A stretch of DNA of 32,000 bases. Source: Candidatus Omnitrophota bacterium. Its GTDB lineage: Bacteria; Omnitrophota; Gorgyraeia; 2-01-FULL-45-10. The translations under genes were made by a program, and so were the position numbers. Under the pieces are notes generated by a model. It searched no databases and had not been told where the DNA came from. It saw nothing but the letters and a program-made list of their open reading frames with translations. How positions within the stretch are numbered: the first letter of the stretch is position 1; each line of letters begins with the position of its first letter. Below, in pieces: positions 1 to 18,357 of this stretch. The stretch covers positions 539,789 through 571,788 of the forward strand of contig JAMWCX010000001.1 of assembly GCA_023818895.1 (NCBI GenBank), in the 5' to 3' direction.

Positions 1-689
1 CCGTATCGATATACTTTACCGCAAAACGGTTTGAAAAAATGTCGCTTATCATAAAGGCTCCAATCCGGGAACGGAAGCGTATCAAGGTCTTCAAGCGGCC
101 CGATTTCGTTCTTAACGACTCCGGAAGATGTCTTTACCCAAAGATTAGGAATTCTGTCATATGGCCTTCCTTCCTCAAGGCTAACACATAAATTACGGAA
201 TGGCGTCTCCCCCTCGCCGATGCAAACAATATCAATATTTTTGTTATCGATAAACTTTTCAGGATTCATAGTCACGCATTTGCCGCCAACAGCCACTACA
301 CTATCCTTATCCGAAATGCTGTTTATAATCTCAATTGCAAGCGGATAGTTATAGGCGGTCGGAATGGTAACTGCAATAAGCCGGGGATTATATTGCTTCA
401 CTTTAGTATTGAAATCGCGGAGATAATCACGCGATTCCCTAATAACTCCAAATTTTTTCATATCAACTGGGAGAAATTCTCCAACCTTCTCGTTCTTTTT
501 TCGGTCTTCATACTCAGTGGTCTTATAATAAGTCGTGTCGAATATATCGACTGGGAATTTTTCATTACGAGCTACCGCGATAAGCGATGAAAGTCCAATT
601 GGGAGGAAGCCCTCAATTCCAGACATTGGATTCACAAATAGTATTTTTGTGGCACGATTTTCAGTTTTTCCCAGTGTAACTTGTCTCAT
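1..689 (-). CDS. B12-binding-domain radical SAM protein, N-terminal 229 aa only (gene continues past window start)
   Basis: Absent from the supplied ORF track because it has no stop inside the window. My own minus-strand translation from ATG 689-687 stays open to position 1: MRQVTLGKTENRATKILFVNPMSGIEGFLPIGLSSLIAVARNEKFPVDIFD...RLIAVTIPTAYNYPLAIEIINSISDKDSVVAVGGKCVTMNPEKFIDNKNIDIVCIGEGETPFRNLCVSLEEGRPYDRIPNLWVKTSSGVVKNEIGPLEDLDTLPFPDWSLYDKRHFFKPFCGKVYRY. It has the same cobalamin-binding N-domain layout (GG...GEGE, LDxLPFPD) as the complete ORFs at 8593-10302 and 16822-18357. The CX3CX2C cluster would lie outside the window. Confidence 0.7.
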   Translation of the reverse strand, partial: MRQVTLGKTENRATKILFVNPMSGIEGFLPIGLSSLIAVARNEKFPVDIFDTTYYKTTEYEDRKKNEKVGEFLPVDMKKFGVIRESRDYLRDFNTKVKQYNPRLIAVTIPTAYNYPLAIEIINSISDKDSVVAVGGKCVTMNPEKFIDNKNIDIVCIGEGETPFRNLCVSLEEGRPYDRIPNLWVKTSSGVVKNEIGPLEDLDTLPFPDWSLYDKRHFFKPFCGKVYRY

Positions 690-730
690 AATTCGCTTAT
701 ACTCCCATGCAATAGCGGACTCCTAGATAT

Positions 731-1693
731 CTATTTCTGACAAAGCACAGTCACCCGATGGCGAAAAGGTCCTTCAAACCTATGAAAAAATGGCGGTCTT
801 AAAGAGAGATAGTAACGATAAAATGCGCATTCTTCATCAACGAGGTGCACATCATTTCTATTCCATGGGTATTTTTCAAATTCGATAACTTCACCCCCTG
901 GAAGTTCTTTTTTTACCCTATTTAAACAATAAAAAAGCGCCCCATCTACCACGTGCGATCGCATATATGCAAAATAACGCATTATAGTTTTGTAATCCAT
1001 TTCTTGCATTGAGGCTATGTTAACTATCAGTCCGAATCTTATATCATTCAACGCCTCAATATTTTCCGATGGACAATAAACAAAATCATATCTCCCCGTT
1101 GAGCAGGTAGCGTTTTCGGGACTAAACACTAAATGATGTCTCGCCTGCCTAAAAATACGCTGTAGATAGATTGCTTGAAAAAGCAGGACTTTTCCAATAT
1201 CAACAAGAACAATAGTCGATCGGGGATAGAGCACCTTAATCATAGCCGAGAGAAAACCATATCCATCACCTATCATAAGTACGGCAATGGAATCTCTCTT
1301 ATCTGCATTAAAATGTTTTAGGATAACATTAAGAGAACAGAGCTGCCTGAAAGATTCATATGAAAGATAGCTATCGACCGCTTTCAACAAGTCACTCGAA
1401 AGCTTCATAAGGTTTTTGATTGCAAAGCGATCGGGTAGGGTTATCAAATATGAGTTGTTGCAAATCATATGGACAATCTTATTAAAGATATGAGTGTTGT
1501 CCATAAGTCCAAAGCCACTACCTCTGAGTACCCGCACATTACCATTATAGTCTATGCTAACTCTTATCCTGGAGCTGTGGTATTTCCAATGAGAAGAAAC
1601 GAAACGCTTGTCCGTATCTTCTCTGCCGTAATACCTATTAAATATTTCGCTAATGATTTTCGGTTCCGGTAATTTATATATATTAAGCTTCAC
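731..1693 (-). CDS. SAM-dependent methyltransferase, probably a sugar O-methyltransferase
   Basis: 320-aa ORF. The GTG start at 1693 overlaps the upstream TGA (GTGA, 1690-1693). A motif-I-like SAM-binding stretch VLMIGDGYGFLSAMI is followed by VLVDIG. Size and layout resemble the stand-alone putative sugar O-methyltransferases that I recall accompanying sialic/nonulosonic acid loci; that family assignment is from memory, not a search. Confidence 0.5.
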   Translation of the reverse strand: MKLNIYKLPEPKIISEIFNRYYGREDTDKRFVSSHWKYHSSRIRVSIDYNGNVRVLRGSGFGLMDNTHIFNKIVHMICNNSYLITLPDRFAIKNLMKLSSDLLKAVDSYLSYESFRQLCSLNVILKHFNADKRDSIAVLMIGDGYGFLSAMIKVLYPRSTIVLVDIGKVLLFQAIYLQRIFRQARHHLVFSPENATCSTGRYDFVYCPSENIEALNDIRFGLIVNIASMQEMDYKTIMRYFAYMRSHVVDGALFYCLNRVKKELPGGEVIEFEKYPWNRNDVHLVDEECAFYRYYLSLRPPFFHRFEGPFRHRVTVLCQK

Positions 1694-16818: not shown

Positions 16819-16821
16819 TCT

Positions 16822-18357
16822 TTACTGCTCCTTGAATATGAATTTGCCAGCATAAGCGATCATGCGTTTATGCTTAAAGGGCGACATCAAAAATCTTTCC
16901 AGCCTGGGTGACAACAAGAACAACCGGACCGATACCTTGATTAGAAGAAATACAAAGAAGAGCTCAAGCAGCTTAAAGTCCCTATTCTTCATATAGGCTA
17001 TCTTTTGAAGGCTCAACTGCAGTTCCAGTATCTTCTTCTTCATGGTGGGGGAATATTTCCAGAAATCCACCCGGTAATAATCTAGCTTCAGCCTTGGCAT
17101 AAATACGTAGAACAGAGGGGCATCCTTCGTCATGCCGCCTAACAATTTTTCATATACGGATGAGTCCAGCCACCAATCCTTGAATTTGAACCGTTCATAG
17201 TATTCTTCATAAAGTGGTGTCCCTGGCATCGGGATCGGCGTCAGCACGTTCACGAAGTACTTGAGAGATGACGGTATCTTCCTATTGAGCTCCAATGTGC
17301 TGTTCAAATGCTTATCATTTTCCCATGGAAAACCTATAATGTTATTGAAATGTACCACCGGAAATTTTATGCTGTCGAGCCTAGACATCGCATCCAGCAC
17401 CTGTTCCTGCGTATAAAACCTTTTTACCATCCTGAGCGTTTCGTCATCACCGCTTTCTACGCCAATAGCAAGCTTGTAGAATCCCACTTCCATCATCCTC
17501 TTCAATAATTTATCGTCGACATTATCAACGCGAGCCCGTGTCGAGATCAAAATCTTGACCTTGCTATTCTCAAGCAGGTCACAAAGCTCATAGATTCTTT
17601 TTTTATCCACAAGAGGTTCATTATCCATGAAGGCTATGTGCTTAGCGCCATATTTCTCATGGAGCATCATCATCTCCTCGAAAACATTCCTGGCCGACCT
17701 GCGGCGCTGTCCGCCGTCCCACGTCCGGCTGGCGGAACAGTAAGTGCACCTGTAAGGGCATCCTCTGGAAGTGAAAACGTCGAAGAAAGTCTTGTTCATA
17801 TCGAGATTATCATTACCGATGTAATCCCTTATTTTATAATCAGTATAATCTGGGAAAGGCACGGAATCGAGGTCCTGTATTTCTTTCCGTCTGGGAGTGA
17901 ATACAAATTTCCCATCGCTCCTGCGAAGCCCCAGGCCATGTACCTCCTCCAGTTTTCTCTTCCCGCTAAAAGCCTCAGCCAGTTCTAATACAACTTCCTC
18001 CCCTTCGCCCAGAGAGACTATATCGACTCCGTGGCCCAGCACCTCCATTGGGACTATGTTGACATGAGGTCCACCAGCGACTACTGGATATCCTAACCTT
18101 TTGATCATGTTGATAAGATAGTATTTCTCTTTTATGAAATCGTATGTCAGCGTCACGCCGACGAATAGAGGCTTGAAATCCCTTATCTCTCCCAGGATCT
18201 CAGAAGGCGCCACTATACTATAGCGAGCAGAAGCGTCTAAAACCTTCACCTCGTAGCCGTTTTTGCGAAGAACAGCCGCCAGGTACGCAAGGTTTAGCGG
18301 AAAAGAGGATGAGAACTCTTTCGTGGGGGGTTTTAATAAAAATACCCTATTGTTCAT
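16822..18357 (-). CDS. B12-binding-domain radical SAM enzyme (class B rSAM)
   Basis: The track ORF extends to 18453. I prefer ATG 18357 (MNNRVFLLKPP...), which makes an ATGA overlap with the upstream sulfotransferase stop. Cobalamin-binding domain: LFVGVTLT...PVVAGGPHVNIVPMEVL...VDIVSLGEGEEVV, with LDSVPFPDYTDY. The radical SAM cluster is SRGCPYRCTYCSA. There is no SPASM-like Cys cluster. Confidence 0.85.
   Translation of the reverse strand: MNNRVFLLKPPTKEFSSSFPLNLAYLAAVLRKNGYEVKVLDASARYSIVAPSEILGEIRDFKPLFVGVTLTYDFIKEKYYLINMIKRLGYPVVAGGPHVNIVPMEVLGHGVDIVSLGEGEEVVLELAEAFSGKRKLEEVHGLGLRRSDGKFVFTPRRKEIQDLDSVPFPDYTDYKIRDYIGNDNLDMNKTFFDVFTSRGCPYRCTYCSASRTWDGGQRRRSARNVFEEMMMLHEKYGAKHIAFMDNEPLVDKKRIYELCDLLENSKVKILISTRARVDNVDDKLLKRMMEVGFYKLAIGVESGDDETLRMVKRFYTQEQVLDAMSRLDSIKFPVVHFNNIIGFPWENDKHLNSTLELNRKIPSSLKYFVNVLTPIPMPGTPLYEEYYERFKFKDWWLDSSVYEKLLGGMTKDAPLFYVFMPRLKLDYYRVDFWKYSPTMKKKILELQLSLQKIAYMKNRDFKLLELFFVFLLIKVSVRLFLLSPRLERFLMSPFKHKRMIAYAGKFIFKEQ

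Follow-up and report, generated by a model that had tools for sequence, protein, structure and literature searches.

Why should genes for several B12-binding radical S-adenosylmethionine (SAM) proteins sit among those for a nonulosonic acid (NulO) sugar, and what might their products act on? The question is raised by a 32,000-nucleotide (nt) stretch of DNA from a Candidatus Omnitrophota bacterium (GCA_023818895.1, contig JAMWCX010000001.1, positions 539,789 to 571,788 of the forward strand), hereafter the window, which encodes three such proteins, rSAM-1, rSAM-2 and rSAM-3, beside a NulO pathway. NulOs are the outermost sugars on flagella, S-layers, capsules and lipopolysaccharide, where they govern immune evasion, phage recognition and the biofilm matrix; to our knowledge, their described diversity arises from stereochemistry and from O- and N-linked substituents. 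An earlier note, made from the letters of the window alone, had placed the three enzymes in the sugar pathway and saw no sign of a peptide substrate. We consider it somewhat more probable than not that the three proteins, which have the class-B radical SAM architecture, act together with a fourth radical SAM enzyme of the SPASM type, encoded just outside the window, as accessory tailoring enzymes of a NulO glycoconjugate pathway rather than as peptide, lipid or tetrapyrrole enzymes, with C-methylation as their most likely chemistry. A glycan-tailoring role and the absence of a peptide substrate appear well supported by comparative genomics, and C-methylation of the NulO by these enzymes is plausible.

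Architecture of the three B12-binding radical SAM proteins

The window consists of one tightly packed operon on the minus strand, with 28 complete genes and a truncated one at each edge; many genes overlap, and no intergenic gap exceeds 41 nt. A public contig of 8.3 kb (L001, the first of the related loci that we cite by number; GCA_023818765.1) is identical to the window over all 5580 shared bases and reaches 2.7 kb past its left edge, where it completes rSAM-1 as a protein of 501 aa (L001 4892-6397). The B12-binding (PF02310) matches of rSAM-1, rSAM-2 and rSAM-3 score 40.9, 73.9 and 62.5 bits against a gathering score of 32.1, and the Radical_SAM (PF04055) matches of rSAM-2 and rSAM-3 likewise exceed the Pfam gathering scores. 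The CX3CX2C motif is present in all three, as CPHRCSYC in rSAM-1 (read from L001), CVNSCAFC in rSAM-2 and CPYRCTYC in rSAM-3. None of them matches SPASM (PF13186) or carries a Cys-rich tail, with zero to three scattered Cys residues past the core. Pairwise identity among the proteins is about 25%, and they represent three separate orthologue groups, each with its own neighbours and with orthologue identities of 50-75% for rSAM-1, 40-59% for rSAM-2 and 36-62% for rSAM-3.

Much of this had been anticipated. The earlier note described three strongly diverged open reading frames (ORFs) with a cobalamin-binding N-terminal domain and without a SPASM or twitch tail, recommended recovering the rest of the leftmost one, counted three class I methyltransferases in the operon and saw no gap above about 41 nt that could house a precursor gene. 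Each of these points held: the three ORFs lie on the minus strand where it had placed them and pass the Pfam thresholds, and Pfam and NCBIfam bear out the three methyltransferases (Table 1). Its motifs were also found (GG, GEG(E/D), LDTLPFP or LDSVPFP, and both cores that it listed), except that in rSAM-2 the third begins with M rather than L (MDTLPYP).

No equivalog cutoff in NCBIfam was reached by any of the three proteins among the BchE, HpnJ, HpnR, PhpK/Sden_1168, MgmA, BzaD, ApyD, ladderane rSAM, TsrM, AprD4 and KedN5-type models (best scores 112-146 bits), and no function can therefore be transferred by homology. By their profiles, the three proteins combine a class-B architecture with a position outside every characterised family.

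rSAM-3 and its nonulosonic acid context

What the proteins might act on is best approached through their neighbours. For rSAM-3, a single-sequence scan of reference genomes gave no match, and a scan with an alignment of orthologues, taking one genome per species and neighbours within ±10 kb, succeeded. It found orthologues (36-43% identity) in Omnitrophota, Phycisphaerae, Planctomycetales, Syntrophorhabdaceae, Pseudomonadota, Actinomycetota, Chloroflexota, Patescibacteria and Woesearchaeota. Of the 17 orthologue loci, which represent about eight phyla, 9 have NulO or cassette genes near rSAM-3; among 66 loci of relatives whose identity is no higher than 34%, just 1 does. Fisher p is 7e-7, and 2e-6 when the comparison is limited to loci of at least 13 kb; both values overstate the evidence because the loci are phylogenetically non-independent. 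The scanned orthologue loci without a NulO match still bear glycan-type genes, namely those for GT4 glycosyltransferases, a flippase, O-methyltransferases and an AsnB-like amidotransferase.

Among the three B12-binding proteins, only rSAM-3 appears to be specifically linked to NulO genes. Its orthologues abut genes for WbuX, CMP-NulO synthetase (CMP, cytidine monophosphate), NeuB or a LegB-like dehydratase, the adjacency to NeuB, CMP-NulO synthetase or WbuX being direct in several phyla, and from this we infer that rSAM-3 is the best candidate to act on a NulO or CMP-NulO itself. One orthologue lies in a flagellin-glycosylation context. In L004, from a metagenome-assembled genome (MAG) of Desulfobacteraceae, the genes that follow a flagellin gene (1272 aa) encode, in order, a sulfotransferase, the orthologue of rSAM-3, NeuB and NeuD, whereas maf, fliD and fliS are divergent. 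By this gene content the locus reads as one for flagellin NulO glycosylation. The flagellin itself is a giant (L004 4970-8788), with Flagellin_N and Flagellin_C ends and a hexapeptide-repeat match in its long central region, and the neighbouring Maf protein has 959 aa. A sulfotransferase was also considered as a universal upstream partner of rSAM-3, which it is not: the arrangement was found in the window and in just 3 of the 17 orthologue loci.

In the window itself, rSAM-3 begins within the last 4 nt of the upstream sulfotransferase gene, and the genes upstream of it form the right half of the operon. This half is, typed by its gene set, a legionaminic-acid-type NulO pathway, a class within which legionaminic acid and its epimers are not told apart by sequence. 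Three of the core enzymes exceed their NCBIfam cutoffs (NeuC_NnaA 469.5 against 235.9 bits, NeuB_NnaB 447.9 against 399.65, NeuD 215.8 against 160.8), and the PtmE-like enzyme is recognised by its Pfam CBS and NTP_transferase domains. Of the amidotransferase trio, WbuX (348.9 against 203 bits) and HisH (195 against 105) pass and WbuZ falls just under its cutoff (267 against 300). The de-N-acetylase of the PIG-L family and the formyltransferase next to it are candidates for an exchange of N-acetyl for N-formyl. No 4,6-dehydratase is encoded in the window; its gene may sit past the right edge, where the gene for the DegT-type aminotransferase probably starts as well.

Directly downstream of rSAM-3 is the gene for unk671, a member of a family of about 650-aa proteins with at least 1416 representative clusters. 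Sequence and profile searches of unk671 against Pfam, NCBIfam and PDB returned nothing significant. Its AlphaFold2 (AF2) model (pLDDT 88, pTM 0.90) matches many glycosyltransferase structures of the GT-B fold in Foldseek with a probability of 1.00 and target-normalised TM-scores of up to 0.60, including those of an OGT homologue, TagF, NeuC and a polysialyltransferase that depends on CMP-sialic acid. Genes for unk671 lie at or near rSAM-3-type genes in L002, L003, L005, L007, L008 and L014. The modelled structure thus points to a new family with a two-Rossmann-domain GT-B fold that is a conserved partner of rSAM-3, and makes unk671 a candidate for a new family of NulO or protein glycosyltransferases. 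One family member, P0429, is fused to APS kinase, a hint of a link to sulfation.

The rSAM-2 cassette, rSAM-1 and the SPASM neighbour

The left 18 kb of the operon encode, in order of transcription, rSAM-3, unk671, a HisC-like aminotransferase, a DAO-family flavoenzyme, a GFO/IDH/MocA oxidoreductase (GFO below), an Ldh_2 dehydrogenase, rSAM-2, a Methyltransf_23 protein, a second cytidylyltransferase, a fusion of a GT2 glycosyltransferase with a cytidylyltransferase (GT2-CTP), the protein unk629, an ABC exporter, a NanM-like O-methyltransferase, rSAM-1 and, beyond the edge, the SPASM radical SAM protein. Orthologues of rSAM-2 lie within a cassette of GFO, Ldh_2, cytidylyltransferase and GT2 genes in all five of the contexts in which we saw them, usually with a Methyltransf_23 gene alongside. 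Most of the left-hand cassette recurs, with its gene order little changed, in five unrelated contigs (L002, L003, L005, L121 and L122), where the core genes (GFO, Ldh_2, CTP_transf_3, GT2-CTP and ABC) are 52-68% identical. Because the cassette has cytidylyltransferases of its own and also occurs without NeuB in view, rSAM-2 may remodel a second CMP-activated unit or a side chain.

These loci are far from uniform in their radical SAM content. In L003, rSAM-2 and its methyltransferase are missing; in L005, the positions of rSAM-3 and rSAM-1 are taken by genes just 24-28% identical to those of the window; and related loci hold one to four B12-rSAM-like genes per 20 kb. Positions for B12-binding radical SAM proteins appear to be interchangeable between related loci, which would make these proteins variable, accessory tailoring enzymes and not core steps of the pathway. 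The earlier note described the three B12-binding proteins correctly, and its interpretation is supported in part; it missed both this modular variation and the fourth radical SAM gene. Four glycan loci from MAGs of Omnitrophota, Woesearchaeota and Chloroflexota (L006, L014, L019 and L026) contain two to four B12-rSAM-like genes within about 20 kb, with five radical SAM genes of all types in L006, and radical SAM tailoring of glycans seems to be widespread in these uncultured anaerobes.

The product of the cassette is harder to read. A block of four redox and pyridoxal phosphate (PLP) genes (10328-14815; Ldh_2, GFO/IDH/MocA, FAD oxidase, HisC-like aminotransferase) is conserved, and its enzymes could serve the synthesis of an unusual acyl or amino substituent, or the oxidation and transamination of a sugar. 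Among their PDB relatives are malate, ureidoglycolate and sulfolactate dehydrogenases for Ldh_2, sugar 3-dehydrogenases for GFO, and 2-hydroxyglutarate or glycerol-3-phosphate oxidases for the DAO-family enzyme, all of which, like those of the aminotransferase, are too generic to fix the product. Serinol-phosphate formation, recycling of 2-hydroxyglutarate, and oxidation at C-8 or C-4 with transamination or epimerisation are ideas that we offer as speculation. The rSAM-2 cassette also occurs in an anammox metagenome (L122), where it is followed (18423-21674) by genes for a 580-aa HMGL-like protein, a third cytidylyltransferase and a DHDPS-family (aldolase-type) protein, a set that gives a hint of another ulosonic acid, made by a pyruvate-aldolase route.

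Further downstream, unk629 is possibly a glycosyltransferase by its faint profile matches (Table 1). Its profile searches against PDB and Pfam returned nothing significant, and its weak C-terminal match to unk671 is insignificant in a profile-profile comparison (3% probability). G+C is about 0.46-0.49 in most of the right-hand genes (12000-30000) and 0.38-0.42 in the leftmost ones (1-5400, with the ABC exporter, the NanM-like methyltransferase, rSAM-1 and unk629), which suggests that the distal module was acquired separately. Upstream of rSAM-3, the 459-aa protein encoded between the two sulfotransferase genes matches no Pfam or NCBIfam family and has no homologue in any fetched locus.

The SPASM protein is the fourth radical SAM enzyme of the operon. 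It reaches no NCBIfam model, the best score being 82 bits where the cutoff is 380. Among solved structures, BtrN, BlsE and DesII come closest (E 1e-7 to 8e-6), with similarity confined to the N-terminal radical SAM core. We examined 34 loci that encode its relatives. Its orthologues (54-74% identity) are flanked by rSAM-1 orthologues, NanM-like O-methyltransferases (about nine loci), unk671, unk629, GT2-CTP, Ldh_2 and ABC genes.

Table 1. Predicted features of the operon in order of position, with the evidence for each assignment; positions are those of the window except in the last row
Feature	Position	Strand	Evidence and remarks
rSAM-1, N-terminal 229 aa of 501-aa protein	1..689	(-)	Pfam B12-binding E 2e-10; remainder past left edge
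NanM-like putative sugar O-methyltransferase (class I)	731..1693	(-)	NCBIfam TIGR04371, 70.9 bits against cutoff 44
ABC exporter, transmembrane and ATPase domains fused	1690..3498	(-)	Pfam ABC_membrane, ABC_tran; orthologues 52-54% identical in L002, L005
unk629, conserved 630-650-aa protein	3504..5393	(-)	faint matches to DUF6716 and BFO_1060 glycosyltransferase models
GT2 glycosyltransferase-cytidylyltransferase (CTP_transf_3) fusion	5394..6746	(-)	Pfam; 66% identical in L003, L005; same fusion in L121, L122
Second CMP-sugar-acid-type cytidylyltransferase	6749..7498	(-)	Pfam CTP_transf_3 4e-15; orthologues 58-62% identical in L002, L003, L005
Class I methyltransferase (Methyltransf_23)	7498..8577	(-)	Pfam; adjoins rSAM-2 orthologue in L002, L005, L122
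rSAM-2, 569 aa	8593..10302	(-)	Pfam B12-binding 1e-20, Radical_SAM 3e-17
Ldh_2-family 2-hydroxyacid dehydrogenase	10328..11407	(-)	Pfam 2e-109; orthologues 65-68% identical
GFO/IDH/MocA oxidoreductase, sugar-dehydrogenase type	11383..12564	(-)	Pfam; orthologues 55-58% identical
FAD (flavin adenine dinucleotide)-dependent oxidoreductase, DAO family	12578..13684	(-)	Pfam 9e-54; NCBIfam L-2-hydroxyglutarate oxidase 4e-52, under cutoff
HisC-like class I/II aminotransferase	13688..14815	(-)	Pfam 1e-39; PDB histidinol-phosphate aminotransferases
unk671, predicted GT-B glycosyltransferase fold	14803..16818	(-)	AF2 model and Foldseek
rSAM-3, 511 aa	16822..18357	(-)	Pfam B12-binding 4e-17, Radical_SAM 1e-28
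Sulfotransferase	18354..19436	(-)	Pfam Sulfotransfer_3 2e-29
459-aa protein	19391..20770	(-)	between both sulfotransferase genes
Sulfotransferase	20780..21772	(-)	Pfam; orthologues 45-50% identical in L002, L004, directly upstream of rSAM-3 orthologues
WbuX, HisH and WbuZ/HisF-like trio (N-acetyl sugar amidotransferase system; acetamidino group)	21801..24584	(-)	NCBIfam
CMP-NulO synthetase	24589..25287	(-)	Pfam CTP_transf_3 3e-24; NCBIfam PseF 173 bits, under cutoff 206
PIG-L-family de-N-acetylase and formyltransferase	25294..26837	(-)	Pfam, NCBIfam
NulO core: hydrolysing 2-epimerase (NeuC/LegG), CBS-nucleotidyltransferase (PtmE-like), NulO synthase (NeuB/LegI), NeuD-type N-acetyltransferase	26834..30813	(-)	NCBIfam, Pfam
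Class I methyltransferase (Methyltransf_25/11)	30825..31532	(-)	Pfam
DegT-type sugar aminotransferase, C-terminal 157 aa from internal ATG	31513..31986	(-)	Pfam DegT_DnrJ_EryC1 2e-18, profile positions 229-359 of 360
Fourth radical SAM, 310 aa, CNYNCTIC core, SPASM with six C-terminal Cys	L001 6414-7346		17 nt past rSAM-1, outside left edge of window

Chemistry, substrates and known systems

Taken together, these contexts suggest how the operon might work. It would make a legionaminic-acid-type NulO, decorate it heavily, activate it with CMP, and transfer and export the product. Each radical SAM enzyme would cleave SAM reductively at the [4Fe-4S] cluster held by its CX3CX2C motif, and the resulting 5'-deoxyadenosyl radical would take a hydrogen atom from an unactivated carbon, either in a nucleotide-linked sugar or in one of the N-acyl or other groups that the sugar carries; in the class-B enzymes, methylcobalamin would most likely give a methyl group to the substrate radical. 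We propose a division of labour on the basis of the conserved neighbours. rSAM-3 would work on the NulO core pathway, beside the acetamidino, CMP-synthetase and sulfotransferase genes, and hand its product on to the GT-B protein unk671. rSAM-2, in its cassette of GFO, Ldh_2, CTP_transf_3, GT2-CTP fusion and Methyltransf_23 genes, would probably serve to make or remodel a side chain or a second acidic unit activated with CMP. rSAM-1 would work with the NanM-like O-methyltransferase and with the SPASM enzyme, a likely anaerobic sugar dehydrogenase, epimerase or decarboxylase. A more specific version of this scheme is tentative and, on balance, doubtful: rSAM-3 and/or its partners may form C-C bonds on the legionaminic skeleton or on its acetamidino or N-acyl groups at the CMP-sugar stage, and so yield C-methylated ("ten-carbon or more"), sulfated NulOs, which in many anaerobic phyla the GT-B family would then transfer to surface proteins such as flagellin.

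Such a scheme has to be weighed against readings that take these enzymes out of the glycan altogether. The SPASM enzyme, and perhaps the B12-binding proteins with it, might belong to a system for ribosomally synthesised and post-translationally modified peptides (RiPPs). The earlier note had said that a precursor peptide and RiPP machinery just beyond the window would speak against a sugar role, and a SPASM gene does lie there, followed in L001 by a 228-nt gap before another gene; the gap contains a 30-aa ORF with four Cys, MRPICGTVAIGSGILSNYYYSCCFYQEQVC (L001 7488-7580), with the Shine-Dalgarno-type sequence AGGAG 5 nt before its ATG, and there are weak matches to RiPP C-methyltransferase models. 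Yet MRPICGTVAIGSGILSNYYYSCCFYQEQVC has no homologue in any of the 34 loci with SPASM relatives, even at E <= 10, and is for that reason probably spurious; in L097 the SPASM gene overlaps the next gene and leaves no gap. Domain scans of the left and middle window and of L001 revealed no peptidase or leader-binding (RRE) genes, and peptide-modifying SPASM enzymes barely register against the protein (anSME, E 0.004), the closest solved relatives of which are sugar enzymes. Given its conserved glycan neighbours, the lack of a conserved peptide gene and these relatives, we read the SPASM protein as a putative fourth glycan-tailoring radical enzyme and regard a RiPP system as very improbable; the earlier note's view that no peptide substrate is in evidence stands, with the largest gap in the window at 41 nt. 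Still less probable is a fortuitous adjacency, in which lipid, tetrapyrrole or cofactor enzymes of the BchE, HpnJ, HpnR or ladderane type merely happen to lie beside a sugar operon. The top NCBIfam names (BchE, HpnJ and the ladderane-lipid rSAM) and some homologue records named "anaerobic Mg-protoporphyrin IX monomethyl ester cyclase" would suit it, but the scores are three to six times under the cutoffs of those families and the genes overlap their neighbours or lie within 41 nt of them. The conservation of glycan synteny across phyla refutes it and upholds the earlier note's assignment of these genes to a sugar pathway.

Two alternatives that stay within glycan biology are more serious. The radical SAM enzymes may leave the NulO untouched and tailor a separate precursor (a 2-oxo, 2-hydroxy or 2-amino acid side chain made with Ldh_2, the DAO-family enzyme and the aminotransferase); or their substrates may be a second acidic sugar activated with CMP, or further sugars of the glycan. 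We hold this to be the strongest competitor to a NulO-tailoring role, though still distinctly below an even chance. It draws on the two cytidylyltransferases of the rSAM-2 cassette, on the L122 copy with its DHDPS-family and HMGL-like aldolase-type genes, on rSAM-1 orthologues in amino-sugar clusters and on the resemblance of the redox and PLP enzymes to 2-hydroxyacid and amino-acid enzymes; it has to contend with the rSAM-3 orthologues that adjoin NeuB, CMP-NulO synthetase or WbuX in several phyla, and with the span of the fetched loci, just ±10 kb, beyond which NulO genes could lie. Slightly less probable, in our view, is that the pathway is as proposed and one or more of the class-B-architecture proteins is not a methylase. 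Such a protein could carry out an AprD4-like dehydration or deoxygenation followed by reduction by GFO or Ldh_2, an OxsB- or HpnJ-like rearrangement or ring contraction, a BchE-like oxidation or cyclisation, or a sugar epimerisation. GFO, Ldh_2 and aldo-keto reductase genes flank rSAM-2 in every locus, and HpnJ and AprD4 act on amino-sugar moieties, namely a glucosamine moiety in HpnJ and an aminoglycoside sugar in AprD4. Against this, most characterised class-B enzymes are methyltransferases (PMC12931638), and MgmA, a C-methyltransferase, tops the sequence and structure matches, with all scores too low to discriminate between chemistries.

A reading in which these enzymes tailor a NulO glycoconjugate, chiefly by C-methylation, must also accommodate a series of observations that count against it. 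All members of the three orthologue groups come from uncultured metagenomes or MAGs and are unannotated or generically named. In NCBIfam, the three proteins score 85-146 bits against many class-B families, three- to six-fold under curated cutoffs of 250-750; the families matched in this way are BchE, HpnJ, ApyD, the P-methyltransferases, MgmA, HpnR, BzaD and the ladderane rSAM, and the best of them, BchE and HpnJ, are non-methylases. The AF2 model of rSAM-3 (pLDDT 92) finds its best structural matches in MgmA, OxsB, TsrM, CysS, AprD4 and TokK, a set in which radical methylases and a polar methylase stand beside a ring-contracting enzyme and a diol dehydratase; OxsB and AprD4 are, again, not methylases. 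Cobalamin use has no conserved signature in sequence, AprD4 keeps the fold without using cobalamin, and an Rfam scan for a cobalamin riboswitch or other RNAs gave no match. rSAM-1 orthologues also occur in glycan clusters, some of them for amino sugars, without a NulO gene in view, the rSAM-2 cassette with its own cytidylyltransferases occurs without NeuB in view in L122, and the Fisher p-values for rSAM-3 are inflated as described above. What the analysis shows is the domain architecture, the separate orthologue groups, a conserved synteny with glycan and NulO genes and, for one orthologue, a flagellin-glycosylation context; substrates, cobalamin use and methyl transfer are what we infer. For each enzyme taken singly, C-methylation comes close to an even chance and is the most likely mechanism because the class prior favours it, class-B enzymes being mostly C-methyltransferases, with carbohydrates among their substrates (review PMC12931638). 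Dehydration or deoxygenation, rearrangement, oxidation and epimerisation are live alternatives, above all for rSAM-2, which is always surrounded by dehydrogenases and reductases.

If these enzymes do modify the NulO itself, nonulosonic acids would for the first time be known as substrates of radical SAM chemistry. The earlier note's remark that such chemistry had apparently not been described holds for the literature searched: full-text searches returned no paper that pairs "radical SAM" with "nonulosonic acid", and the small number in which it occurs together with pseudaminic acid or with glycosylation of flagellin are off-topic by title. The enzyme architecture is known; what is new are the uncharacterised orthologue groups and the pathway in which they occur, a setting conserved in many anaerobic phyla. 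NulO pathways are associated with as many as four radical SAM enzymes in Omnitrophota, Planctomycetota (including anammox bacteria), Desulfobacterota, Chloroflexota, Patescibacteria and DPANN archaea, and this conserved association implies an additional layer of C-H functionalisation, one specific to anaerobes. The substrate range of class-B radical SAM enzymes would extend to nucleotide-activated acidic sugars, and a new GT-B family would be gained as candidate NulO transferases. There would also be an enzymatic origin for unexplained "higher-carbon ulosonic acids", such as the rare "potential 10 C" compounds that mass spectrometry detected in Magnetospirillum and Methanococcus (PMC8157484), and +14 Da increments in environmental glycans, which are routinely taken as O-methyl, may be something else. 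The S-layer glycan of anammox bacteria is unusually heavily methylated, with +14 Da steps assigned to O-methyl from mass spectrometry alone (PMC5088730). Both reports fit our proposal and prove nothing. The second, on the S-layer glycan of Kuenenia, makes no mention of radical SAM genes. The gene sets described here provide concrete starting points for heterologous reconstitution.

Several known systems bear comparison with the operon. The closest solved structure to rSAM-3 is that of MgmA/QCMT, the methyl-coenzyme M reductase (MCR) glutamine C-methyltransferase (PDB 9CCB; PMC12931638), by sequence (E 2e-15) as well as by fold (E 3e-22, target-normalised TM-score 0.70). Identity is 22%, however, and the 92 bits given by the NCBIfam MgmA model fall short of its cutoff of 360; the target of MgmA is a glutamine in a protein, whereas here there is no MCR and the operon is one for a glycan. 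GenK and GenD1 (gentamicin) and Fom3 (fosfomycin) share the B12-binding domain and the radical SAM core and have carbohydrate or nucleotide-linked substrates, that of Fom3 being CMP-linked. In the loci studied here, cytidylyltransferase genes flank rSAM-2 and several rSAM-3 orthologues, and the substrate class would be a NulO glycoconjugate and not an antibiotic. With methylases of the KedN5, TokK and CysS type, the B12 domain alone aligns (E 1e-9 to 1e-16, about 35-58 bits against a cutoff of 700). HpnJ, BchE, OxsB and AprD4 have the same architecture and do not methylate; BchE and HpnJ lead the NCBIfam matches and OxsB and AprD4 are among the top structural ones, yet the scores are 85-145 bits against cutoffs of 480-580 and no hopanoid, bacteriochlorophyll, oxetanocin or apramycin genes lie nearby. 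For the small 310-aa SPASM protein, with its C-terminal auxiliary-cluster Cys motif, the best solved relatives (BtrN, BlsE and DesII) are radical SAM enzymes that act on sugars.

The pathway itself is most readily compared with the legionaminic acid (Leg/Ptm) loci of Campylobacter, which have in common with the window the NeuB/LegI, NeuC/LegG and NeuD/LegH enzyme types, a PtmE-like enzyme, a CMP-synthetase and a WbuX-type amidotransferase. The likeness extends to L004, where the orthologous sub-cluster lies between a flagellin gene and maf. We know of no radical SAM genes in the Campylobacter loci. The window, in contrast, has neither maf nor a flagellin gene and adds to the shared pathway new GT-B-type proteins, an ABC exporter, sulfotransferases and four radical SAM enzymes, one of them encoded just outside it.

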